Assembly: GCA_902623255.1 (NCBI GenBank) | Contig: CACNSY010000006.1 | Span: forward strand, 21,566-85,565 | Source of the DNA: an uncultured Alphaproteobacteria bacterium | GTDB taxonomy: Bacteria; Pseudomonadota; Alphaproteobacteria; HIMB59; GCA-002718135 | Direction of reading: 5' to 3' | DNA: 64,000 nucleotides | Shown here: piece by piece, positions 25,490 to 36,559 of the stretch | Numbering within the stretch: the stretch's first letter is position 1 | Layout: each line of letters opens with the position of its first letter | Position numbers and translations under genes: made by a program | Notes under the pieces: generated by a model | Told to the model about the DNA's origin: nothing | Databases searched by the model: none | What the model saw: the letters and a program-made list of their open reading frames with translations, nothing else

Positions 25490-26428
25490 ATGAGCCATTT
25501 ATTTTATAAACCTGCTAAATCTAGATTGCACAGAAGTGAATTGGCAGTTCCTGGCTCTAATCCAAAGATGTTTGAAAAAGCATTAAAATCAAATGCTGAT
25601 TATATTTTCTTAGACCTAGAAGATGCAGTATCTCCAAATGATAAAATTGATGCAAGAAGAAATGTTATTAATGCAATAAAAGAATATAATTGGAAAGAAG
25701 AAGGTAAAACAATCTCTATAAGAATTAACGGTTTGGATACACACTATATGTATCGTGATGTAATTGAGATTATAGAAGAGGTAGGTGATAGAGTTGATAC
25801 ATTATTAATTCCAAAAGTAGGCTCATCATCTGATGTATATATGGTCGATTGTTTGCTTAATCAAATTGAGCAAAATAAAAAATTTGAAAATAGAATAGGT
25901 TTAGAATGTTTAATTGAAACAGCACTAGGAATGTCTAATATTCAATCAATTGCAACATCAAGTTCAAGACTAGAAGCATTACATTTTGGAGTTGCAGATT
26001 ATGCAGCAAGTATGCGAGCAAGAACCGTTGTCATAGGAGGTTTAAATCCTGATTACCCTGGAGATCAATGGCATCATGGTTTATCAACATTAGTAATGAC
26101 TTGTAGATCATATGGCTTAAGAGCAATAGACGGACCTTTTGGTGATTTTAATGACAAAGAAGGATATCTTGATGCAGCAAAAAGAGCTGCAGCAATTGGT
26201 TTTGAGGGTAAATGGGCAATACATCCATCACAAATAGATCTTGCTAATGAAGTTTTTTCTCCACCTAAAGAAGAAATAGATAAAGCAAAAAAAATATTAT
26301 TAGAATTAGAAAAAGCAGCTGCTGAAGGAAAAGGTGCCGCTCAGCTTGATGGAAGAATGATCGATGCTGCATCTGCAAGAATGGCTGAAAATATTGTAAA
26401 TATAAATAAGTTAATTGAAAGTAAGTAA
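25490..26428 (+). CDS. mcl: L-malyl-CoA/beta-methylmalyl-CoA lyase (CitE family)
   Basis: RLHRSELAVPGSN, DLEDAV, RINGLDT, LHFGVADYAAS, GKWAIHPSQI; immediately upstream of mtkAB. Confidence 0.85.
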   Translation: MSHLFYKPAKSRLHRSELAVPGSNPKMFEKALKSNADYIFLDLEDAVSPNDKIDARRNVINAIKEYNWKEEGKTISIRINGLDTHYMYRDVIEIIEEVGDRVDTLLIPKVGSSSDVYMVDCLLNQIEQNKKFENRIGLECLIETALGMSNIQSIATSSSRLEALHFGVADYAASMRARTVVIGGLNPDYPGDQWHHGLSTLVMTCRSYGLRAIDGPFGDFNDKEGYLDAAKRAAAIGFEGKWAIHPSQIDLANEVFSPPKEEIDKAKKILLELEKAAAEGKGAAQLDGRMIDAASARMAENIVNINKLIESK

Positions 26429-27588
26429 TGGATATACACGAATATCAAGCAAAAAAAATATTGTCTGATTTTGGTGTTAAAATTCCGACTGGTGGTATTG
26501 TTTATAGTCCGGAAAATGCAGAAAACAAAGCAAGAGAAATTGGTGGTTCAAAATGGGTTGTAAAAGCGCAAGTTCACTCAGGTGCTAGAGGTAAAGCGGG
26601 AGGAATTATAATGTGTAATTCTCCGTTAGAAGTTGCTGATGCAACCGATAAATTGTTAGGTAAAAAATTAATTACAAACCAAACTGGTCCAGAGGGAAAG
26701 ATAATAAATAGAATTTATATTGAAGAAGCAACTGATACCAAACACGAATTATATTTAGGTTTAGTGTTTGATAGATCTTCAGAAAGTATAATGGTTGTAG
26801 CCTCAACAGAAGGTGGAATGAGTGTCGAAGAAATTTCAAAAGAAAAACCTGAAACAATTATACGATCTAAAATAGAAGTAGCAGTTGGTATTCAACAATT
26901 TCAAGCAAGAGAAATAGCTTTTGGTTTAGGAATTGAATCCAAATTGATCTCAAGAGCTGCAAATACAATAATTGGTTGCTATAAAGCTTTTAGTGAGCTT
27001 GATGCGACAATGGTTGAAGTTAACCCATTAGTTGTATCACACCAAGATGAAATATTAGCATTAGATTGTAAAATGAGTTTTGATAATAATGCAATGTTTA
27101 GAAGAGACGAAATTGCAGAACTTAGAGATAAAACACAAGAAAATTCAAATGAAGTTTATGCTTCTGACAGAGGAATGAATTATGTAAGCTTAGATGGGAA
27201 TATTGGTAATATTATTAATGGTGCAGGCTTAGCAATGGCTTCAATGGATATGATCAAACTTGCTGGTGGTGAACCAGCAAATTTTTTAGATGTTGGTGGA
27301 GGTGCAACACCTGAAAAAATAGTTAAAGCTTTTAAATTAATCTCTATGGACACAAAAGTTAAGGTAATATTAGTTAATATCTTTGCAGGGATTAACAGAT
27401 GTGATTGGGTTGCAGAAGGAATTGTTCAAGCTTTATCAAAAATTGAAACTAAACATCCGTTAGTAATACGTTTAGCTGGAACTAACGTCGAAAAGGGAAA
27501 TGAAATACTTAAAAAAAGCAATATTAATTACATTGAAGCATCAACTTTAGAAGATGCAGCAAATAAAGCAGTAAAGGCTCTTGGATAA
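26428..27588 (+). CDS. mtkA: Malate--CoA ligase (malate thiokinase) beta subunit
   Basis: MDIHEYQAK, KAQVHSGARGKAGG, NGAGLAM, and VNIFAGINRCDWVAEG (Mtk-type; SucC has NIFGGIxRCD). Confidence 0.82.
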   Translation: MDIHEYQAKKILSDFGVKIPTGGIVYSPENAENKAREIGGSKWVVKAQVHSGARGKAGGIIMCNSPLEVADATDKLLGKKLITNQTGPEGKIINRIYIEEATDTKHELYLGLVFDRSSESIMVVASTEGGMSVEEISKEKPETIIRSKIEVAVGIQQFQAREIAFGLGIESKLISRAANTIIGCYKAFSELDATMVEVNPLVVSHQDEILALDCKMSFDNNAMFRRDEIAELRDKTQENSNEVYASDRGMNYVSLDGNIGNIINGAGLAMASMDMIKLAGGEPANFLDVGGGATPEKIVKAFKLISMDTKVKVILVNIFAGINRCDWVAEGIVQALSKIETKHPLVIRLAGTNVEKGNEILKKSNINYIEASTLEDAANKAVKALG

Positions 27589-27590
27589 TC

Positions 27591-28487
27591 ATGTCTATAA
27601 TCATTCACAAAAATACAAAGATTTTAGTCCAAGGATTTACAGGAAAAATTGGAAGTTTTCATGCTGAAGAAATGATTAAGTATGGTTCTAACGTTGTTGG
27701 TGGGGTAACACCTGGCAAGGGTGGTATGACTCATTTAAATCTTCCTGTTTTTAATACTGTTAAAGAAGCTGTAGATCAAACTGGAGCATCAACATCAATT
27801 TTATTTGTCCCACCAGCCTTTGCAGCAGATTCAGCAATGGAAGCTGCTGATGCAGGTATTAAAACGTGTGTGGCTATTACTGACGGAATTCCTTCTCATG
27901 ATATGGTTAAAATAAAAAGATACATGAGAAGATATCCAAAAGATAAAAAAATGGGATTAGTAGGTCCGAATTGTGCAGGAATAATTAGCCCTGGTAAATC
28001 TATGTTAGGTATTATGCCTGGTCACATTTACAAAGAGGGTAAAATAGGAATAGTTAGTAGATCTGGCACTTTGGGATATGAAGCTGCACAACAACTTAAA
28101 GATTTGGAAATTGGTGTTTCAACAAGTGTAGGTATAGGAGGCGATCCAATAAATGGAAGTTCTTTTAGAGATATAATTGAAAAGTTTGAAAATGATGATG
28201 AAACTATTGCAGTTTTAATGATAGGTGAAATAGGTGGCCCACAAGAAGTTGAAGCTGGACAATTTGCTAAAGAAAATATGAGTAAACCAGTAATTGGGTA
28301 TATAGCAGGATTAACTGCACCTAAAGGTCGTGTGATGGGTCATGCTGGTGCAATTGTTTCTGCTTATGGTGAAAGCGCAATAGAAAAAGTAGAACTTCTT
28401 AAAGAGTGTGGAGTTACAATTTCCAAAAACCCTTCTGTAATGGGTGAAACTGTAAAAAAAGTATTAGTAGAAAATAATTTGAATTAA
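27591..28487 (+). CDS. mtkB: Malate--CoA ligase alpha subunit
   Basis: QGFTGKIGSFHA, ITDGIP, GPNCAG, SRSGTLGYE, MGHAGA (phospho-His). Confidence 0.82.
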   Translation: MSIIIHKNTKILVQGFTGKIGSFHAEEMIKYGSNVVGGVTPGKGGMTHLNLPVFNTVKEAVDQTGASTSILFVPPAFAADSAMEAADAGIKTCVAITDGIPSHDMVKIKRYMRRYPKDKKMGLVGPNCAGIISPGKSMLGIMPGHIYKEGKIGIVSRSGTLGYEAAQQLKDLEIGVSTSVGIGGDPINGSSFRDIIEKFENDDETIAVLMIGEIGGPQEVEAGQFAKENMSKPVIGYIAGLTAPKGRVMGHAGAIVSAYGESAIEKVELLKECGVTISKNPSVMGETVKKVLVENNLN

Positions 28488-28502: not shown

Positions 28503-28640
28503 ATGAAATTTTTATATAAAAATGAATTCTGGATGTTAATATTTTCTCTAGGTGTTCTTTATTGGTTATTTAATCCATCAGTCTTAACAACCTTAGTTAT
28601 GATTGTGCCATTGTTATTGGCCGTTTCTTCCCGTAAATAA
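28503..28640 (+). CDS. Small membrane protein (45 aa), not in the ORF track
   Basis: MKFLYKNEFWMLIFSLGVLYWLFNPSVLTTLVMIVPLLLAVSSRK*; hydrophobic hairpin 15 bp after mtkB. Confidence 0.55.
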   Translation: MKFLYKNEFWMLIFSLGVLYWLFNPSVLTTLVMIVPLLLAVSSRK

Positions 28641-28695
28641 AGCTAAGTTTTATACTTACTGATGCATGAAAGTTTATCGTATTTAAAGTTAAAAA

Positions 28696-29259
28696 ATGAA
28701 ATTATATCTTATTAGACACGCAGAGTCAGAAGCTAATGCAGCATCAGATTTAGATAATCCAACTTATTATTATGATGCAAGAATTACTCAAAGAGGAGTT
28801 GAGCAAGCAAAAAAATTAAATAATAGAATTAAAAATCTTAAATTTGATAATTATTTTTGTTCCCCCTTAACAAGAACATTGGAAACATTCTCTATTGTTT
28901 TTCCATCTAATAAACCTGTAATTGAACCTTTAATAAGAGAACATTTGTACCATTCATGTGATGTAGGAAGACAACCAAAAAAATTAAAAAAAGAATTTAA
29001 TGATTTTGATTTTAATAATTTAAATGATTTTTGGTGGAATAATAACAAACCTATTAATGAAAAAAAAATTATACAAGAGTCTCACAATGATATTAAAATG
29101 AGATTAAAGTCTTTTCTGCTATCTATCAAAAACATTAATTTACAAAAAATTGTATTAGTCAGTCATGGTACATTCTTAAGTCAAATAACTGAATATATGC
29201 TGGATAACTGTGAGGTATATGATTGTGAGTACAATGAGGTATACGAAAAATTTTTTTAA
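28696..29259 (+). CDS. Histidine phosphatase (phosphoglycerate mutase-like) family protein
   Basis: LIRHAESEAN, SPLTRTLET, IRE, VSHG. Confidence 0.88.
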   Translation: MKLYLIRHAESEANAASDLDNPTYYYDARITQRGVEQAKKLNNRIKNLKFDNYFCSPLTRTLETFSIVFPSNKPVIEPLIREHLYHSCDVGRQPKKLKKEFNDFDFNNLNDFWWNNNKPINEKKIIQESHNDIKMRLKSFLLSIKNINLQKIVLVSHGTFLSQITEYMLDNCEVYDCEYNEVYEKFF

Positions 29260-29282
29260 TTTAATTTTTTATAAATAAAACT

Positions 29283-30050
29283 CTAAAACATCTCATTTAT
29301 TATTTTATTTAATTTTTGTATTACTCTATCAATTATTTTTTTTCCTATCTTTGAATTGGATTTTCTAGGATCTCCAATAATTCCACTTTTACTTAATTCC
29401 TTAGTTGTCCATGCTTTCTTAATATTTTTCTCATAAGAAATCGTTTTAGATGATAAATAATCGGGAGATAATCTATGTTTAGAAATTTTAGATTGCCTAA
29501 CTAGGTTTGGAAATAAATATAACATAATAGATGTTTCAAATTCTCCACCGTGATAACCAAAGTCTTTTTCTTTACTTGATATAATTCCTTTAAATTGATC
29601 AAATAAAAAATATGTACCTTTTACTATGTTTATCTTAAATTCTGATTTCAATTCTTTTGCAATAATATCAATATGGCTAATTTGCCCACCATGACTATTT
29701 AAAAGTAATATATTTTTAAATTTTAATTTACATACATTTTCTAAAATTGACAAAGAGTGTGATATAAATTCCAATGAATCGATACTTATGGTTCCATCAA
29801 AATCTGTATGTTCAGCAGCTGAACCAAAATATATTTCAGGCATAATTAAATATTTATTTGATTTATATTTTTTATTAAATTCTAATAATATTCCTTCAAG
29901 AATTTTTTTATCAGTATTTAATGGAAGATGCGGACCGTGTTGTTCTATCGATGAAAATGGGAAAATTAAAACTGTTTTTCTATTTATTTTTTTAATTTCA
30001 TTTGTTGTTAAATCTTCCCAAAAGTTTGTTAGCATTTTTTTATTATACAT
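29283..30050 (-). CDS. Creatininase family amidohydrolase (formamidopyrimidine deformylase-like)
   Basis: EQHGPHLPLNTD, EH..F.GTI, NSHGG, HGGEFETS, SGIIGDP. Confidence 0.88.
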   Translation of the reverse strand: MYNKKMLTNFWEDLTTNEIKKINRKTVLIFPFSSIEQHGPHLPLNTDKKILEGILLEFNKKYKSNKYLIMPEIYFGSAAEHTDFDGTISIDSLEFISHSLSILENVCKLKFKNILLLNSHGGQISHIDIIAKELKSEFKINIVKGTYFLFDQFKGIISSKEKDFGYHGGEFETSIMLYLFPNLVRQSKISKHRLSPDYLSSKTISYEKNIKKAWTTKELSKSGIIGDPRKSNSKIGKKIIDRVIQKLNKIINEMF

Positions 30051-30063
30051 TTATAAGTAAATT

Positions 30064-31023
30064 ATGAAATCTTATTCTTTATGGATTGATAAAAAAAAAC
30101 AAGCTAAAATTTATCAAAAAAAACTTGTTTACAATAAAAATAACAAAACAGTTTTAGTTAAAACTATATACTCAGGTATTAGCAAGGGGACTGAAAAATT
30201 AGTTTCATCTAAAAGTGTAAGTCAGGATCAATTTGAATTAATGAAAGCTCCTTTTCAAGAGGGTTCTTTTAATTTACCTATAAAATACGGTTATATAAAT
30301 GTTGGGAATATTATAGATGGTCCAAGGAAATATATAAATAAAAAAATATTTAGTCTTTATCCTCATCAAGATTTATATGAAATTTCTATTCAAAATTTAA
30401 TTTTTCTACCAGAAAGAAATTTGAGAAAATATATTCTAACTGCAAACATGGAAACAGCTATTAATATCTTTTGGGACGCTCAATCTAAAAGTAATAACAA
30501 AATTCTAATTGTAGGGCTTGGCTCTGTAGGATTATTAACGGCATTCTTTTTTAAAATTAATGGATATAAAAATGTTTATGTTTTTGATAATAATAAAAAT
30601 AAAAAAAAAATTGCCAATTATTTAGGATTAAATTTTGTTGATATAAGAAAGATTGAGAAAATAGATGTAGCAATAAACACTACAGCTAATTATAAAGTTT
30701 TAAATTCTTTAATGGAAAAATTATCTATCGAAGGAAAAATAGTAGAAGCTAGTTGGTATGGTAAAAATAAAGGAGAAGTTGCCTTAGGCGGTTATTTTCA
30801 TTCTAAAAGATTAAAAATTATTAGCTCACAGGTATCTAAAATACCAAAATACATGAAAAATAAATATGATTTTGAGGGAAGATTAAAATTAGCAATTAAA
30901 TCTTTAAAAAATTCAAAATTAGAAAAATTAATTACTAGTGAAAGTAATTTTTTTGATTTAGAAAAAGATTACTATAAAATCCTTCAAAATAAGGATACAA
31001 TAATGCATCTAGTTAAATATTAA
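30064..31023 (+). CDS. Medium-chain dehydrogenase/reductase (zinc-binding ADH-like, lacking the catalytic Cys)
   Basis: SGISKGTE, PIKYGY..VG, ANMETA.N..WD, Rossmann GLGSVG, SWYG, FHSKRL.IISSQV. Confidence 0.8.
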   Translation: MKSYSLWIDKKKQAKIYQKKLVYNKNNKTVLVKTIYSGISKGTEKLVSSKSVSQDQFELMKAPFQEGSFNLPIKYGYINVGNIIDGPRKYINKKIFSLYPHQDLYEISIQNLIFLPERNLRKYILTANMETAINIFWDAQSKSNNKILIVGLGSVGLLTAFFFKINGYKNVYVFDNNKNKKKIANYLGLNFVDIRKIEKIDVAINTTANYKVLNSLMEKLSIEGKIVEASWYGKNKGEVALGGYFHSKRLKIISSQVSKIPKYMKNKYDFEGRLKLAIKSLKNSKLEKLITSESNFFDLEKDYYKILQNKDTIMHLVKY

Positions 31024-31025
31024 TT

Positions 31026-31424
31026 ATGTATTCGATAAAAGTAAGAGAAAATATTCTAATAGCTCATTCTTTACCTGGAGAAGTATTTGGACCAGCCCAA
31101 AATATGCATGGAGCTACATATTTAGTAGATGCTGAATTTTTCACTGATAAACTTAATAAATACAATATAATTATGGATTTAGGAATAGTGTCCACTACTT
31201 TAAAAGATATTCTTAAAATATATAATTATCAAAATTTAGATGAAATTGATGAATTTAAGGGAAAAATTACCTCAACAGAGTTTTTAGCAGAGGATATCTG
31301 CAATAAGATCTTGAATAGACTAAGAAAAGAATTCTCTGAAGATTATAAATCTTTAAAAAAAATTAAAATAACTTTGCAAGAATCAAATGTTGCATGGGCA
31401 TCATATGAAAAAGAGGTTATCTAA
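31026..31424 (+). CDS. 6-pyruvoyl-tetrahydropterin synthase/QueD-family (T-fold) protein, PTPS-IV type
   Basis: IAHSL, FGPAQNMHGATY (no CxxxHGH), YQNLDE, STEFLA, ESNVAWASY. Confidence 0.85.
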   Translation: MYSIKVRENILIAHSLPGEVFGPAQNMHGATYLVDAEFFTDKLNKYNIIMDLGIVSTTLKDILKIYNYQNLDEIDEFKGKITSTEFLAEDICNKILNRLRKEFSEDYKSLKKIKITLQESNVAWASYEKEVI

Positions 31425-32451
31425 TAATAAATCTGATATTTATTTTGTTTATCCAGGAAATATTAATGCAAAAACTGGAGGATATATTTATGAAAAAAAT
31501 ATCCTAGAATATGCAAAGATAAGAGATATAAATATTAGACCAATTTCTCTAAGTGAAAATTATCCTTTTCCTACAAATAACGATATAAAATATTTTCTAA
31601 AAATTTTAGATAAAATTGATCCTGACTCTAAAATTATAATTGATGGATTAGCTTTAGAAGGAATGTATTCAATTTTCAAAAAAATACTTACTTATAATGT
31701 TATCGCGCTAATACATCATCCTTTATATCTTGAATTTAAAGGTCAAAGGTCAAAAAAATTCTTACGATTAGAAAAAGCAAATTTTAAAAAAATAAATAAA
31801 TTTATTGTTACTTCTAAAAATACAAAAAAATTATTAATAGATGAATTTAAGGTACTAAATAATAAAATTTCTGTAGTTGAACCTGGTATAGAAAGACTTG
31901 CAAAATATAATTTTAAAAATAATAGTAAAATTTATTTTTTAACATGTGGAAGTATAATAAATAGAAAAAATTATCTTTTTTTATTAAAAGTTTTAAAGCC
32001 TTTAGATAATTTTATTTTAGAAATTGTTGGTGATACTACAAGAGATATAAGTTATTACAAAAAACTCAAAAAATATATTTCTAAAAATTCAATGAGCAGA
32101 AAAATCATATTCCATGGCACTATTTCAGATACAAAATTAGCTAAATTATATTCTAAAACAGATTGTTACATTTCGGTAAGTAAATATGAAGGTTTTGGTA
32201 TGTCTTTAGCAAATGCATTAATAATTAAAAAGCCAATTATAACCTTTTTTACTAATACTATCTTAAATACACTAGGGAAAAAGGGTGTTATTTATTTCAA
32301 AAAATTTGAAGTAAATGATCTTAGAAATATAATTATTAAAAATATATTAAATAAAAAAAATTTTAAAAAATTGAATATTAATATAAATAAAAATAAAAGA
32401 TATCTTCTTACTCCTCTAGAGTCAGCTAAGAAATTTGTTAAATTAATTTAA
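31405..32451 (+). CDS. Glycosyltransferase family 4 (GT-B)
   Basis: PG...TGGYIYE, IDGLA, LIHHP, VEPG, RK, YEGFGMSLANA (Ex7 motif with the second E replaced). Start approximate. Confidence 0.82.
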   Translation: MKKRLSNNKSDIYFVYPGNINAKTGGYIYEKNILEYAKIRDINIRPISLSENYPFPTNNDIKYFLKILDKIDPDSKIIIDGLALEGMYSIFKKILTYNVIALIHHPLYLEFKGQRSKKFLRLEKANFKKINKFIVTSKNTKKLLIDEFKVLNNKISVVEPGIERLAKYNFKNNSKIYFLTCGSIINRKNYLFLLKVLKPLDNFILEIVGDTTRDISYYKKLKKYISKNSMSRKIIFHGTISDTKLAKLYSKTDCYISVSKYEGFGMSLANALIIKKPIITFFTNTILNTLGKKGVIYFKKFEVNDLRNIIIKNILNKKNFKKLNININKNKRYLLTPLESAKKFVKLI

Positions 32452-32452
32452 T

Positions 32453-33241
32453 ATGCATGAATTTCAAAATAAATGGTTAAATCTTAGAGAAACTGTCGAT
32501 AGAAATTCACGAAACAAAAGAATACTATATTTAATTAATAAATTTTTTAAAAATAAAAAAAATATTAGAATAGTTGATTTGGGTTCAGGCGCTGGATCTA
32601 ATTATAGATTTCTTAAGTCACGATTATTAAATAATCAATATTGGTCTTTTGTAGACATATCACATCAATCAACAAATTATTTTAAAAAAAATATACAATT
32701 ATCTTCTAAAATAAAAAAAACTAATTTTAAAATTGTTGATGTAATTAATAATTTAGAAAAAATAAATTTTAGTGATTATAATTTAGTTACAGGATCTGCT
32801 TTTTTAGATATTCTTCCAAAAACATGGTTTAAAAATTTTCATAAATTAAATCTTGATACAGAAATTGTCTATTTTGCCTTAAATTATAATGGTAATTTTA
32901 AATTTTTTCCAAAACACAAGGATGATAAAAAAATTCTTAATATTTTTAATAAAGATCAAAAATCTGACAAAGGAATAGGGGAATTGGCTGTTGGACCAGA
33001 TTGTACTGAATTAATAAATAAAGTATTTAAAAGAACTCACAAAACATATGTTTCAGACTCTACATGGGATGTTAGTACTAATTATGAATTTCAAGTTTAT
33101 TTCTTAAATTTTTGTAGAGAAATTATTCAAAAAAATAAACTTAACTTTGATGATTGGTTAAAATTTCGTTTAAAAAGTATTAAAGAAAAAAATTCTAGAT
33201 TTATTTTAAATAATACAGATTTTTTAGCTATTAAGAAATAA
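32453..33241 (+). CDS. Class I SAM-dependent methyltransferase-fold protein
   Basis: WLNLRE.VD..SR, IVDLGSGAGSN (motif I), VTGSAFLD, LNYNG. Confidence 0.75.
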   Translation: MHEFQNKWLNLRETVDRNSRNKRILYLINKFFKNKKNIRIVDLGSGAGSNYRFLKSRLLNNQYWSFVDISHQSTNYFKKNIQLSSKIKKTNFKIVDVINNLEKINFSDYNLVTGSAFLDILPKTWFKNFHKLNLDTEIVYFALNYNGNFKFFPKHKDDKKILNIFNKDQKSDKGIGELAVGPDCTELINKVFKRTHKTYVSDSTWDVSTNYEFQVYFLNFCREIIQKNKLNFDDWLKFRLKSIKEKNSRFILNNTDFLAIKK

Positions 33242-34057
33242 ATTAACAATAATTTCATTATCTAATTCATTAAAATTATGTTTTGGTCTGATAGCTTTAT
33301 TGAGATTTGAAATTTCTTTTAAATTTAATGAATTAATTCCTGAACCTATTAATATTGGGGCAATCATAAATTGAAGAATATCAATATATTTATTATTTAT
33401 TAATTCTGAAATAGTTTTTGATCCTCCCTCTACTAAAATATTTTTATATTTAAGTTTTTTTATTTGCGTAATTAAGTTTTTAGTAAAATTTTTTTCTTTT
33501 AATCTAATTATTGTTGAATTATTCAATCTAATATTTTTATTACTTTTTGTAAAAATTATATTTTCATTACCGTCATTAAATATTTTATATTTGTTATTTA
33601 GCGAAAGACTACCATCGATAATAATTCTTTTTGGATTTGTGCCCTTTATTTTTCTTGTTGTTAATAGGGGATTGTCTTTTTTAATGGTATTTGAGCCTAC
33701 AATAATTGCATCACTGATACTTCGTAAACAATGCAGATAAATTATACTCTTAGGATTATTTATGTAGTGTGAATTACCATTATTTAATGCAATTCTACCA
33801 TCAATACTTTGTCCTATCTGAGCTATTACTAATTTTTTGTTTTTTCTTAATATCGGGAGAAGGATATTTAAGATTGACTGATAAAATTTACTTATATTAA
33901 TTTTAGATTCCAGATTATTATTTTTTATGTAAAAGTTACTTTTTCTTTTTGTTGATAAAGAAATACTATTTTTTTTAACCAATAAATATAAATCACTATT
34001 CTTTTTAGAATTTTTTATAAAATCTAGTAAAATTCCTATATTTTTTGATGTAATCAT
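33224..34057 (-). CDS. Stand-alone RibD C-terminal (pyrimidine reductase, DHFR-like) protein; no deaminase domain
   Basis: IGQSIDGRIA, HCLRSISDAIIVGSNT, DNPLLTTR, LVEGG, APILIGSG; no HAE...PCxxC. Confidence 0.85.
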   Translation of the reverse strand: MITSKNIGILLDFIKNSKKNSDLYLLVKKNSISLSTKRKSNFYIKNNNLESKINISKFYQSILNILLPILRKNKKLVIAQIGQSIDGRIALNNGNSHYINNPKSIIYLHCLRSISDAIIVGSNTIKKDNPLLTTRKIKGTNPKRIIIDGSLSLNNKYKIFNDGNENIIFTKSNKNIRLNNSTIIRLKEKNFTKNLITQIKKLKYKNILVEGGSKTISELINNKYIDILQFMIAPILIGSGINSLNLKEISNLNKAIRPKHNFNELDNEIIVNLFLNS

Positions 34058-34093
34058 TTGTTTTTATTTCAATTATATCTATATAAAGTTTTC

Positions 34094-35215
34094 ATGAGTT
34101 TCAAATCTAATACAGGAACTATAATAGATAGGGCAATTAACGAACTCAGGACCGGAAGACCCTTAATAATTCAAAATAACAAGGAATATTGGATGTTTTT
34201 TAATATAGAGCATTCCCAAAGTAAAATTTTTAATCAATTTAATAAGCACTTAATTGATGAAAAGTATCTACTTATAACTAAACAAAAAGCTCAATCAATT
34301 TTTAATAAGAATATTAAAAGTAATATTTATTTTGAGATAAATCCCAAAACAGATGTAAATCAAATAATAAATTTATTTGTTAATCCTCTTAGCAATAATA
34401 AAGTAATTAAATTTACCAATATTAAAAAATTCAAAGCTAAAAATTTTCATAATGTTTGTATTGATCTTTCCAAAAATGCTAAAATGATACCATCGCTAGT
34501 TTTTAAAAAAATAAATAAAAAATATTACAAAAATATAAATGAATTTGGTTTTAAAAATGGAATTTTAATTTTTGATTATAAAGATTTATTGAAGCAAAAT
34601 GAATTAATTTGTGAAAGTATCAAATTAGTTTCTAGTGCAAAAGTTCCACTACCAAAAAATGAAAATTCTAATTTTAAAATATTTAAATCATATATTGGCT
34701 CAGATAAACACGTAGCGATAATTGTTAATCCAAAAAAAATAAATAAAAAATCTGTTAATTTAAGAATACATTCAGCTTGTTTTACAGGTGATATTTTTCA
34801 TTCTTTAAAATGTGATTGTGGTGAACAATTAAATCAATCAATCAATTACATGGTTAGAAATAATGGTGGAATTATATTATATTTAGAACAAGAAGGTAGG
34901 GGAATAGGATTAGCTAATAAAATGAGAGCTTATTCTCTTCAAGCAAGGGGTATGGATACAATAGACGCTGATCATAATATTGGTTTTTTAGATGATGAAA
35001 GAGATTTTAATATTGCAGCTAGAATACTGAAATTATTAAAAATAAATAAAGTTAATCTTATTACAAATAATAAAAATAAAATTAATTCCATTAAGAAAGC
35101 TGGAATTAAAGTTGAAAATCAAATAAATACAAAGCCAACATTGAATAAATTTAATAAAAATTATTTTAAAACAAGAGTTAAAAAAGCTGGGTACGGTCTT
35201 AAACTAGTAGTATAA
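34094..35215 (+). CDS. ribA: GTP cyclohydrolase II with a degenerate N-terminal DHBP-synthase-like domain
   Basis: RIHSACFTGD, CDCGEQL, QEGRGIGL.NK.RAY.LQ, DERDF, LITNN. N-terminal RAINELRTGRP lacks the RibB acidic loop. ATG at 34094. Confidence 0.88.
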   Translation: MSFKSNTGTIIDRAINELRTGRPLIIQNNKEYWMFFNIEHSQSKIFNQFNKHLIDEKYLLITKQKAQSIFNKNIKSNIYFEINPKTDVNQIINLFVNPLSNNKVIKFTNIKKFKAKNFHNVCIDLSKNAKMIPSLVFKKINKKYYKNINEFGFKNGILIFDYKDLLKQNELICESIKLVSSAKVPLPKNENSNFKIFKSYIGSDKHVAIIVNPKKINKKSVNLRIHSACFTGDIFHSLKCDCGEQLNQSINYMVRNNGGIILYLEQEGRGIGLANKMRAYSLQARGMDTIDADHNIGFLDDERDFNIAARILKLLKINKVNLITNNKNKINSIKKAGIKVENQINTKPTLNKFNKNYFKTRVKKAGYGLKLVV

Positions 35216-35217
35216 TT

Positions 35218-35661
35218 ATGAAAAAAATTCCTAAGATAAAACTTCAGTTAACAAACGATAATGAGTTTGATTCATCTAAATTAAAGAATAAAACAGTTTT
35301 ATTCTTTTACCCTAAGGCGTTAACTGGTGGATGCTCAGTAGAAGTTGCAGATTTTCAGAAATATTTAATAAAATTTAATAAAATTGGCTTTGATGTAATA
35401 GGAGCTTCTAAAGATCCTGTTGATCGTAATAAAAAATTTTCAGATAAGTATAAATTGAAATACCCACTTGGTTCGGATGAAGGAAAAAATTGTGATAAAC
35501 TTGGTATTTGGATAGAAAAATCTATGTATGGTAGAAAATATTTTGGGATAGATAGATCTACATTTGTAATCGATAAAAATGGAAAAATTCTAAATTCTTG
35601 GCATAAAGTAAAAGTTAAAGGTCATGTTGAAGAAGTATATAATTTTTGTAAGGATCAGTAA
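35218..35661 (+). CDS. bcp: Peroxiredoxin Bcp/PrxQ
   Basis: FFYPKALTGGCSVE, KSMYG, RSTFVID, VKVKGHVEEV. Confidence 0.9.
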   Translation: MKKIPKIKLQLTNDNEFDSSKLKNKTVLFFYPKALTGGCSVEVADFQKYLIKFNKIGFDVIGASKDPVDRNKKFSDKYKLKYPLGSDEGKNCDKLGIWIEKSMYGRKYFGIDRSTFVIDKNGKILNSWHKVKVKGHVEEVYNFCKDQ

Positions 35662-35665
35662 ATTT

Positions 35666-36559
35666 TTATTTAATTTTACCTATTTCTTTTTCTCTTTTGA
35701 TTACAAATAAACCACTTAACGTAATAATTATTGCGCCAATAATCATATTATAAGTTGGAGTTTCACCTAGTATTAAATACCCAAAAATCATACCAAATAT
35801 AATTACACTGTATCTTGCAGAGGCCGTTAATGAGAGTGGTGCATAAAAAACTGTTAATACTGAAAATAAATATCCGAATAAAACAAATATACTAGAAGCT
35901 AGAATATAATTTAGATCTTCACTGCTAACTTGATAACCAAAAATTATTGAACCCAACCCTGCAAACCCAGTAATTAACAATGCTGTCACAAATGTAATTT
36001 CAACACTATTTGATTTAGTTGCTAAACTTTTTGTAGCAATATCTCTAATAGTCAAAAAAATAGCAGCTAAAATTGGTAACACTAAAAGATAATTAAATTG
36101 AAAATTTTGTGGATTTACAACTACTATAACACCTAAGAACCCAATAATAACTGCACACCATCTTCTTATTCCAACCTTCTCTCCCAAAAAAAGAAAAGCA
36201 AATATTGTGACAAAGAAAGGATTAGTCATTAAAAGTGTGTAAACCTCAGATATTGGAAGTAATATTAATCCAACCAAAAAAAATAATGCCGTTAAAACTT
36301 CATACAAACCTCTTATATGAAAACCTTTGATTGATAGTATTTTAATTAAATTCTTTTTTTCGAAAAAAATTAAATATAAACCTAATAGACTTGATGTAAC
36401 TAAACCTCTTAAAAAAATTACAGAATATAATGAATTGTCATCACCTATATTTTTTACAACAAGTTTGACATAACTATCATTTATAGAGAATGATAATTGG
36501 CCAGCCATCATAAAAATTACACCTATCGTCCCAACTGAAAATAAAATCTTGCTTTTCAT
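35666..36559 (-). CDS. DMT/EamA family transporter
   Basis: FLGEKVGIRRW...GFLGV, about 10 TM segments. Confidence 0.85.
   Translation of the reverse strand: MKSKILFSVGTIGVIFMMAGQLSFSINDSYVKLVVKNIGDDNSLYSVIFLRGLVTSSLLGLYLIFFEKKNLIKILSIKGFHIRGLYEVLTALFFLVGLILLPISEVYTLLMTNPFFVTIFAFLFLGEKVGIRRWCAVIIGFLGVIVVVNPQNFQFNYLLVLPILAAIFLTIRDIATKSLATKSNSVEITFVTALLITGFAGLGSIIFGYQVSSEDLNYILASSIFVLFGYLFSVLTVFYAPLSLTASARYSVIIFGMIFGYLILGETPTYNMIIGAIIITLSGLFVIKREKEIGKIK

Follow-up and report, generated by a model that had tools for sequence, protein, structure and literature searches.

Cyanobacterial pteridine glycosides, such as cyanopterin and BH4-glucoside, start from FolE and a canonical PTPS, combine a pterin core with GT4 glycosylation and methylation, and have proposed roles in UV and photo-protection. 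In Chlamydia, a bypass formed by RibA and TrpF closes the product of GTP cyclohydrolase II (GCH II) to dihydroneopterin monophosphate, according to the accessible part of PMC4161248. Sinorhizobium and Brucella cannot make riboflavin without a creatininase-fold formamidase (PMC9478397). The FGPAQ signature has been named for the PTPS-IV subfamily, and a neighbourhood with PF00925 and RibD_C (PF01872) is in print, as far as the available text of PMC5445326 goes. Given that publication, the view of a preliminary description that the locus analysed here is a candidate for an undescribed system is not supported; the same description's statement that no product has been identified agrees with the literature searched, which names none for the PTPS-IV cluster. 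The cluster reported here is a stripped-down version, from a small-genomed ocean bacterium, of this published (SCO6650-type) cluster.

The window, i.e., the whole 64,000-nucleotide stretch of alphaproteobacterial DNA that was analysed, contains seven contiguous, uninterrupted ORFs at 29283..35215 (Table 1). The ORF list, Pfam matches and folds establish that these genes, and the motifs quoted for them earlier, are real and intact. The proposed single seven-gene unit stands as far as contiguity is concerned; the genes form four blocks on both strands (<crea, MDR>PTPS>GT4>MT>, <ribD_C, GCH II>) and not one operon. Of the two divergent gaps, both very short, one spans 13 bp and the other, measured as far as the ATG at 34094, 36 bp. 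All cluster genes are under purifying selection (dN/dS 0.01-0.32 against seven kin loci), and 23 of the 26 kin loci, the window included, have all seven genes arranged in this way, the remaining three being incomplete; the arrangement is therefore not due to chance.

Table 1. Genes of the cluster and its flanking histidine phosphatase gene, with positions in the window.
Feature	Position	Strand	Evidence
Histidine phosphatase	28696..29259	+	PF00300, E 2.7e-22
Creatininase-fold amidohydrolase, 255 aa; start may be ATG at 30035	29283..30050	-	PF02633, E 1.4e-54
MDR-family dehydrogenase, cysteine-free, 319 aa; core gene	30064..31023	+	GISKGTE motif; ADH_zinc_N E 4.9e-5, below cut-off
PTPS-IV T-fold protein, SCO6650 type, 132 aa; core gene	31026..31424	+	PTPS, E 8.6e-21
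GT4 glycosyltransferase, 354 aa; probable start 31405	31387..32451	+	PF00534 (Glycos_transf_1), E 4.2e-19
Class I SAM-dependent methyltransferase-fold protein (MT), 262 aa; core gene	32453..33241	+	Methyltransf E 3.5e-4, below cut-off; DLGSGAG motif
Stand-alone RibD-type reductase without deaminase domain, 277 aa	33224..34057	-	PF01872 (RibD_C), E 2.2e-31
GTP cyclohydrolase II, long N-terminal extension, PRK08815-like; probable start ATG 34094	34058..35215	+	PF00925, E 1.6e-48

The histidine phosphatase gene adjoins the cluster, at either end, in 12 of the 26 kin loci, is absent there from the other 14 and was found at no distant locus; it is possibly a lineage-specific eighth gene, an assignment that is uncertain. 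The host genome comprises 1.5 Mb and is 86.8% complete. A search for viral origin found no relative in IMG/VR, a search for regulatory RNA gave only two tRNAs in the window, both far from the cluster, and a promoter scan was uninformative, with 48 sites against 63 expected by chance. Contigs from 14 marine RNA runs contain 0.23-0.32 of the words of 28600-35700, an observation at contig level that is not counted as evidence of expression.

The T-fold protein carries FGPAQNMHGATY exactly as earlier quoted, with FGPAQ in place of CxxxHGH and H14, H28, E85 and E119 retained, both invariant in 24 sequences. Alignment with PTPS/QueD structures shows other residues in place of the catalytic Cys and of the second HGH histidine (HGH to HGA). 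Its sole PDB match is 3d7j (SCO6650; E 3.5e-34), and the family profile reaches E 8.5e-61 with that structure versus 2.4e-7 with the next PTPS. Together with FGPAQ and the adjacent GCH II (PF00925) and RibD_C (PF01872) genes, these matches bear out the earlier assignment to PTPS-IV. Identity with QueD or PTPS-I, -II or -III was rejected, the protein having no CxxxHGH, CxxxxxHGH or ExxHGH motif and scoring 37 bits against the TIGR03367 cut-off of 89.25. We take the invariant Glu85 to be the pterin-anchoring Glu; no second PTPS-family gene occurs in the genome. The MDR protein bears GISKGTE as quoted and has no cysteine anywhere, which upholds the description of an enzyme devoid of the catalytic zinc Cys. 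Its predicted model (pLDDT 96.4) confirms the fold, with L-idonate and other polyol dehydrogenases as best matches (Z 30.1; 289 residues at rmsd 2.2 A), almost level with many MDRs; S40, E44, Y75, Y77, H101, Q102 and E130 are invariant in 47 sequences. The methyltransferase model (pLDDT 95.9) has a class I fold closest to small-molecule methyltransferases (Z 17.5), with no standout. Fold searches with MDR and MT singled out no substrate, and Atlas searches with the cluster families returned nothing beyond the families' own clusters.

Among 401 alphaproteobacterial genomes, 45, or about one in nine, carry PTPS-IV. MDR occurs in exactly these 45 and none outside, MT in 42, all among the carriers, and a cluster-type reductase (E<=1e-38) in 40, leaving five without it. 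The earlier claim that the genes co-occur elsewhere is thus substantiated by the kin loci (23/26), MDR (45/45) and MT (42/45). The notion of a minimal gene set is not supported by the 88 distant loci, of which only 10 hold all seven genes together; these loci are not independent, about 30 being from Streptomyces. The conserved core is MDR, PTPS-IV and MT, with or without GT4. In the haptophytes Emiliania, Gephyrocapsa and Prymnesium, the core genes are fused, one haptophyte protein joining three PTPS-IV copies, MT and MDR; the linker of the algal fusion had no Pfam match, and GT4 is missing from the fusion and from some loci. Only multi-member haptophyte fusions were used, most other long fusions being single-member and frameshift-like. 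In Haloarcula, the gene recruited beside the same core encodes a GTP ring-opener that is not homologous to GCH II and is annotated as GTP cyclohydrolase IIa, and the cluster is also present in several other phyla and haloarchaea. One plasmid match, expected to be SCO-like, is a lone PTPS-IV gene without the cluster.

Cluster GCH II is closest to the NCBIfam model PRK08815, below its cut-off. Its zinc cysteines (C241, C252, C254) and Y292, equivalent to Tyr105, align with E. coli 2bz0, while Glu53 and Asn118 are replaced by Ala and Asp (E53A/N118D). The N-terminal extension does not significantly resemble the RibB of this genome (best E 0.19); one distant GCH II homologue has a weak DHBP_synthase match (E 9.5e-6, below cut-off). 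The variant travels with the amidohydrolase, which lies in the locus in 30/31 non-Tyr, 7/11 distant Tyr/Asp, 23/23 kin Tyr/Asp and 0/11 canonical Tyr/Asn cases, two rows of these counts having been read by eye; L022, whose GCH II match is a housekeeping RibBA, is excluded from the residue counts, although the count of 47 still includes it. Where Asp-type genomes have no amidohydrolase in the locus, amidohydrolase matches turned up in 5 of 5 genomes, one of them without the cluster GCH II, a comparison that has no Asn-type control and is uninformative. The variant probably releases some or all of its product still formylated. The amidohydrolase, with the creatininase-fold metal ligands E36, H38, D47, H120 and E172 as in BrbF/ArfB (invariant in 14 cluster homologues), falls short of the thresholds set for the models of creatininase, MftE and ArfB (30.9 bits versus 180 for ArfB) and is a probable formyl-aminopyrimidine (FAPy) deformylase. 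In the reductase, Gln80 occupies the bacterial Lys152 site, which is Gln or His in 30/30 aligned cluster homologues and Lys in housekeeping RibD; R112, D128 and E210 are invariant among cluster homologues. The enzyme thus has Rib7/ArfC-type features: no deaminase domain, a non-Lys residue at this site, and retained catalytic Asp and Glu. According to the accessible part of PMC3631187, this site selects between deaminated and non-deaminated substrates. Since the selecting lysine is missing, the 2-amino ring is probably kept. Of the earlier alternative "deformylated or deaminated", the co-variation of GCH II and amidohydrolase and the Lys152 replacement point towards the former and against the latter.

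Housekeeping roles for the cluster look unlikely. A full riboflavin operon (ribD-ribE-ribB(A')-ribH-nusB) lies on contig C1 and a separate ribA, encoding a stand-alone canonical RibA that passes TIGR00505, on C12; the cluster was therefore rejected as the only ribA/ribD source of riboflavin. The reported absence of lumazine and riboflavin synthases applies to the cluster and not to the genome, which has ribH and ribE. A role as back-up or damage control for flavin precursors, in which formylated or excess aminopyrimidines are salvaged, inactivated or exported through methylation and glycosylation, draws on the riboflavin formamidase of Sinorhizobium and Brucella (PMC9478397), on the cluster amidohydrolase being the sole creatininase-like gene found in the genome, and on the degenerate cyclohydrolase domain of the C1 RibBA. 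This role is very unlikely given the complete canonical set and the lack of the cluster's PTPS-IV in 356 of the 401 class genomes, including the 99% complete relative G036; envelope genes and the algal fusion also fit biosynthesis better.

As claimed earlier, folE is missing: neither folE nor folE2 was found genome-wide (86.8% complete). Replacement of GTP cyclohydrolase I by the cluster, feeding dihydroneopterin to folate, could account for the absence of both genes from 17/17 kin genomes that nevertheless retain folP (13/17) and folK with folB (5/5). It is extremely unlikely, since folE is present in 39 of 40 distant PTPS-IV carriers tested, and G044 and G045 (91-92% complete) have folP-folB-folK and no PTPS-IV match. 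A second, divergent TrpF adjoins folK in 4/4 fol loci examined, matching the Chlamydia bypass (PMC4161248, accessible part), and this paralogue beside folP-folB-folK better explains the missing folE.

Retention of the ribityl chain, with a second ring built from a separate small carbonyl unit, would give an 8-ribityl-pterin, lumazine or deazaflavin-like redox cofactor, F420 role included. Such a role is stated for PTPS-IV in the accessible part of PMC5041015, citing unpublished work; one genus (G228, G435) has F420 genes at a distance of 3-6 kb from the cluster, and cytochrome b561 (11/85 distant loci) and YceI (17/85) genes hint at redox recycling. The cluster has no gene for the condensing unit, which, with the CofG distribution, makes this cofactor distinctly unlikely. 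CofG is over cut-off in 10/45 PTPS-IV carriers versus 54/356 non-carriers among the alphaproteobacterial genomes (Fisher p 0.28; kin not independent) and in 0/14 genomes of this order. FO synthase, absent from 35/45 carriers, is thus not enriched, and F420 biosynthesis was rejected for these bacteria; PF01933, the CofD check, had no match in G000. A genome search for QueC gave weak matches only (best E 1.4e-7). For these bacteria, neither the "queuosine biosynthesis" label of databases nor the F420 remark based on unpublished work looks right.

The cluster very probably makes a dedicated GTP-derived metabolite, and the separate canonical rib genes uphold the earlier proposal of a pathway apart from riboflavin. 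Our tentative reading is a self-contained route parallel to riboflavin that may lead from GTP to a soluble, methylated, glycosylated 2-amino-4-oxo pteridine, distinct from riboflavin, folate and F420. The variant GCH II would open GTP, leaving some or all product probably formylated, by chemistry known for the family. The creatininase-fold enzyme would strip the formyl group, as BrbF/ArfB do, to give 2,5-diamino-6-ribosylamino-pyrimidinone 5'-phosphate, and the reductase, judging from its specificity residue, would convert ribosyl to ribityl with no deamination. More speculatively, the zinc-free MDR could oxidise a ribityl hydroxyl, most simply at C2'; condensation of the resulting ketone with the 5-amino group would give the second ring of a 7,8-dihydropterin, and the T-fold protein might grip the 2-amino-4-oxo ring via Glu85 and steer closure or side-chain rearrangement. 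Methyltransferase and GT4 would then decorate the product. By analogy, the aminopyrimidine-to-dihydroneopterin closure described in the accessible part of PMC4161248 lends this pteridine route precedent. Reducing and then reoxidising would be roundabout compared with the single TrpF step, and the absence of a RibD-type reductase near 23/27 Met-type actinobacterial loci and from 5/45 carriers indicates that the reductive step is not universal. Also against the route, the kept Tyr switch residue predicts, from what is reportedly known of SCO6655, full deformylation by GCH II itself. The lack of GT4 in the haptophyte fusion and in some loci, and of any cyanobacterial pteridine glycosyltransferase by name among the 60 GT matches listed, also counts against it, as do fold searches that give neither MDR nor MT a substrate.

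The same co-occurrence and residue evidence would also fit a monocyclic product, i.e., a methylated, glycosylated ribityl- or keto-ribityl-aminopyrimidine that would serve as compatible solute, antioxidant, substituent of the envelope or UV screen, with the T-fold protein as side-chain isomerase or aldolase. The GT4 profile is nearest Tll1590 (6kih) and MshA (7qsg, 3c4q), with no cyanobacterial pteridine glycosyltransferase named, among the 60 of 96 PDB matches listed; the second Glu of its E-x7-E motif is Asn in 24/25 kin sequences. These nearest solved relatives presumably act on sugar or polyol phosphates, and a polyol-phosphate head group is suggested by the envelope-attachment genes that 70/85 distant loci carry. 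Against this reading, ring closure is easy for 5,6-diaminopyrimidines that have a ketone nearby, with precedent in the accessible part of PMC4161248, and T-fold enzymes of the PTPS family handle pterins, according to the part of PMC5041015 available; a monocyclic product is unlikely. For the pteridine route, the extra genes of most other bacteria would link the product either to a lipid or to a glucan of the periplasm. None of these genes occurs in this lineage, so its product is probably soluble.

In broader terms, it is possible, if rather doubtful, that PTPS-IV, zinc-free MDR and MT constitute a new FolE-independent GTP route to an unrecognised methylated pteridine that bacteria, haloarchaea and bloom-forming haptophytes use as a cofactor in redox reactions or photo-protection. 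In most bacteria a phosphatidyl-transfer or an MdoH-like module, never both, would anchor the product to the envelope. In abundant streamlined marine bacteria it would stay soluble, and a second formyl-releasing GCH II variant of independent origin would feed the route. That a 1.5-Mb genome retains the cluster under purifying selection adds to its significance. Because the window version includes the enzymes that supply it and lacks membrane proteins, no other copy should be as easy to reconstitute. The predictions made at residue level, namely that deamination does not occur and that the E53A/N118D cyclohydrolase releases formylated product, allow a direct test of a question dating from the SCO6650 structure.

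Compared with the cyanobacterial pteridine glycosides, folE was not found here and the T-fold protein lacks the PTPS catalytic set. The chlamydial pair shows pterin ring closure starting from the GCH II product; it differs in using one TIM-barrel isomerase and in feeding folate (PMC4161248, accessible part), a role that appears to be taken in this lineage by the separate fol-linked TrpF paralogue. The ArfA-ArfB-ArfC/Rib7/BrbF route shares with the cluster a ring-opener, a creatininase-fold enzyme, in the cluster a probable deformylase, and a reductase of the type acting before deamination. Unlike that route, the cluster has no deaminase, lumazine synthase or riboflavin synthase and carries four tailoring genes instead; at the Lys152 site its reductase has Gln or His, where fungi and archaea have Thr or Asn, according to the available portion of PMC3631187. 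In the SCO6650-SCO6655 locus of Streptomyces coelicolor (3d7j) and related Streptomyces loci, GCH II is short and of the Met type, a RibD-type reductase is usually missing, and genes for a CDP-alcohol phosphotransferase and a flippase-like protein are present, whereas the window locus has a long Tyr/Asp/Ala GCH II, a reductase and no envelope genes. Common to both are the FGPAQ T-fold protein, the MDR>PTPS>GT4>MT order, the amidohydrolase and GCH II.

The cluster very probably makes a dedicated GTP-derived metabolite, which is the best-supported reading of the data. Its seven open reading frames are intact and lie where the preliminary description placed them. Their gene families were confirmed with Pfam and NCBIfam; the MDR and the methyltransferase score under the Pfam cut-offs, but their structural models (pLDDT 96.4 and 95.9) superpose well on known structures, the first on MDR enzymes (Z 30.1, rmsd 2.2 Å, 289 aligned) and the second on class I methyltransferases (Z 17.5, rmsd 3.4 Å, 234 aligned). 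Compared with seven kin loci, each cluster gene gave a dN/dS of 0.01-0.32, a comparison that left out one MDR split in two. In the relative G015, the MDR gene consists of two ORFs, reflecting either a sequencing error or a pseudogene. The host assembly is alphaproteobacterial (1.47 Mb, 28.8% G+C, 86.8% complete); among named organisms, uncultured Alphaproteobacteria are closest to it, and one member of the MDR's 90% cluster is labeled Pelagibacterales by one source. The cluster has a G+C of 22%, but its third-position G+C (0.09-0.17) resembles that of two neighboring control genes (0.13 and 0.16), so there is no sign of recent acquisition.

In two divergent gene pairs the gaps measure just 13 and 36 bases, so either the promoters must extend into adjacent coding sequence or the transcripts have no leader; a consensus promoter scan was uninformative. 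In 12 of 26 kin loci a histidine phosphatase adjoins the cluster; it stands at the other end in L044 and L045, and may dephosphorylate the cluster product in the window's genus. Elsewhere in the window, genes for the beta (over the PRK14046 cut-off) and alpha subunits of malate-CoA ligase come after a malyl-CoA-lyase-like gene, a set predicted to be a malate thiokinase/malyl-CoA lyase module of glyoxylate metabolism.

Features of the cluster, its surroundings and related loci
Feature	Coordinates or members	Strand
Block 1: amidohydrolase		minus
Block 2: MDR, PTPS, GT4, MT		plus
Block 3: reductase		minus
Block 4: cyclohydrolase		plus
Divergent gap, 13 bases	window 30050-30064	
Divergent gap, 36 bases	window 34057-34094	
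Histidine phosphatase	window 28696-29259	
Malyl-CoA lyase/malate-CoA ligase genes	window 25490-28487	
Split MDR of G015	L046:7415-8373	
Housekeeping RibBA	L001:4185-5339	
F420 genes near cluster	L013:15757-20000	
F420 genes near cluster	L017:8085-12500	
Lone plasmid PTPS-IV	L146:8001-8426	
fol-linked TrpF-like gene	L142:7023-7673	+
fol-linked TrpF-like gene	L143:1669-2331	-
fol-linked TrpF-like gene	L144:6843-7505	+
fol-linked TrpF-like gene	L145:7647-8309	+
Haptophyte fusion set	P0121, P0122, P0244, P0245, P0252, P0286, P0287, P0327, P0368	

PTPS-IV occurs in 41 of 60 relatives, many of whose genomes are incomplete, and in 45 of 401 genomes of the class. The MDR profile matched the identical 45 genomes and none beyond, while the methyltransferase profile matched 42, every one a PTPS-IV carrier; since these profiles, which scored the top 5-6 candidates of each genome, were partly derived from the same loci, the informative part of this co-occurrence is the absence outside carriers. 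Forty of the 45 PTPS-IV carriers also have a cluster-type reductase (E<=1e-38). The preliminary description had asked whether the seven families travel together, and among kin they largely do: all seven stand in identical order in 23 of 26 loci (a count that includes the window and may include some genomes twice), with flanking genes that vary from lineage to lineage. A wider scan yielded at least 597 confirmed PTPS-IV matches, 80 of which included Actinomycetota, Gamma- and Betaproteobacteria, Bacteroidota and Gemmatimonadota. Among 113 distant loci, the 88 with sufficient flank contained MDR in 87, GT4 in 84, MT in 81, all three in 79, the reductase in 53, GCH II in 47, the amidohydrolase in 38 and all seven genes in 10, counts that are not independent because about 30 loci are from Streptomyces. 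A Haloarcula locus combines the core genes with an annotated GTP cyclohydrolase IIa, the archaeal ring-opener that has no known homology to GCH II. Twenty-five plasmid records match; on a Streptomyces anthocyanicus plasmid, a lone PTPS-IV gene adjoins a MEKHLA-domain gene, with the rest of the cluster absent.

A housekeeping role in riboflavin, queuosine, F420 or folate synthesis looks unlikely in these bacteria. That the cluster serves as flavin back-up or damage control is very unlikely, as the separate canonical riboflavin route was located in the window's genome: contig C1 carries ribD-ribE-ribB(A')-ribH-nusB, and contig C12 a canonical ribA. The cyclohydrolase domain of the housekeeping RibBA is degenerate (41.7 bits vs 205.85 for TIGR00505), which leaves the cluster enzyme and the stand-alone ribA to open GTP. 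A queuosine role is likewise unlikely, PTPS-IV being devoid of the QueD motif and QueC matches being weak. An 8-ribityl-pterin or deazaflavin-like cofactor is an improbable product: in favor of a link, one genus, whose clusters carry no methyltransferase, has F420 genes at a distance of 3-6 kb, but CofG (64 of 401 genomes) occurs in 10 of 45 carriers vs 54 of 356 non-carriers (p 0.28) and in none of 14 genomes from the window's order. In print, PTPS-IV is assigned a part in F420 synthesis on the basis of unpublished work (PMC5041015), and HVO_1284 is listed as ArfA (PMC8305020).

Residue-level comparisons bear on the individual steps. The MDR has zero Cys and invariant S40, E44, Y75, Y77, H101, Q102 and E130; its Asp175, read by the general cofactor rule, suggests NAD(H). 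The closest solved relatives of the GT4 are Tll1590 and MshA, whose substrates are sugar or polyol phosphates, and in kin the second Glu of E-x7-E is replaced by Asn. In the T-fold protein, His14, His28, Glu85 and Glu119 are invariant, and the protein has lost the catalytic Cys along with one Zn His. The reductase retains the phosphate-binding Arg together with the catalytic Asp and Glu; at the E. coli Lys152 site, 30 of 30 aligned cluster proteins have Gln or His, where housekeeping RibD has Lys. Lys at this site favors a deaminated substrate (PMC3631187). GCH II keeps its Zn cysteines and Tyr, with Glu53 replaced by Ala and Asn118 by Asp. Sorted by GCH II residue type, the loci with an amidohydrolase of their own number 27 of 27 for Met, 3 of 4 for His, 7 of 11 for distant Tyr/Asp, 23 of 23 for kin Tyr/Asp and 0 of 11 for Tyr/Asn (L015 and L132 were judged by eye, and L022 was left out). 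These counts suggest, as a lead, that the Asp variant, too, releases its product still formylated, as substrate for a BrbF-like enzyme (PMC9478397).

The route that we tentatively favor would open the GTP ring and deformylate it, reduce and then re-oxidize the opened compound, close it to a dihydropterin and, last, methylate and glycosylate it. Against this route, the reductase is missing from 23 of 27 Met-type loci, the GCH II Tyr is retained, and fold searches point to no substrate. A monocyclic aminopyrimidine glycoside is a less likely, doubtful product.

The fate of the product appears to differ between lineages. Within 6 kb either side, 70 of 85 distant loci contain at least one envelope gene: a CDP-alcohol phosphotransferase (50), a flippase-like LPG-synthase domain (34), a sulfatase-like protein (25) or an MdoH-like GT2 (13), the first and last being mutually exclusive. 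None was found in the 26 kin loci, nor a PF03706 gene in the window's genome. From this distribution we infer a core product bearing a free alcohol or phosphate, attached to lipid or periplasmic glucan in most carriers and left soluble in the window's lineage.

As for folate, kin have neither folE (0/17) nor folE2 (0/17) yet carry folP (13/17), folK (5/5) and folB (5/5), which speaks for a folate bypass through the cluster. No folE, folE2, folP, folK or folB was found in the window's genome; in the relative G235 the fol operon lies directly upstream of cysS-thrS, and in the window's genome thrS is truncated at the end of C12, so this absence probably reflects a gap in the assembly. In 4 of 4 fol loci, a second, divergent TrpF, additional to canonical trpF-trpB-trpA, adjoins folK within a pabB-pabA-pabC-folP-folB-folK operon. 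Among 12 second-family genomes, the nine with folP have two PRAI matches and the three without have one; in the window's genus the paralogue scores close to the limit of detection, with none seen in three folP-positive genomes. The arrangement matches the RibA+TrpF bypass of Chlamydia described in PMC4161248, the only such paper found in the literature searched, and is a candidate for a FolE bypass through a dedicated TrpF-type enzyme in free-living marine bacteria. With this match the cluster is no longer needed for folate synthesis, and folE was found in 39 of 40 distant carriers tested; a folate bypass through the cluster is highly improbable.

The core enzymes also occur as fusions. The haptophyte proteins P0121, P0244 and P0245 contain three PTPS-IV domains, a linker, MT and MDR, with signature residues lost from the middle T-fold domain. 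The linker of about 170 residues has no Pfam match and is HAD-like by eye only. The names Emiliania huxleyi, Gephyrocapsa oceanica and Prymnesium come from related partial forms and not from the full-length P0121 cluster.

Compared with known systems, the proposed kinship with SCO6650 was borne out, this being the sole PDB match of the T-fold protein (E 3.5e-34). Papers by Spoonamore reportedly treat SCO6650, SCO6655 and the Met/Tyr switch. FGPAQ is described as the PTPS-IV signature, with PF00925 and RibD_C in its neighborhood, in PMC5445326. No paper found in the literature searched names the product. The preliminary description had proposed an undescribed system; the cluster is instead a compact, envelope-free version of an orphan cluster already known, hence no new discovery but a practical way into an unsolved pathway.
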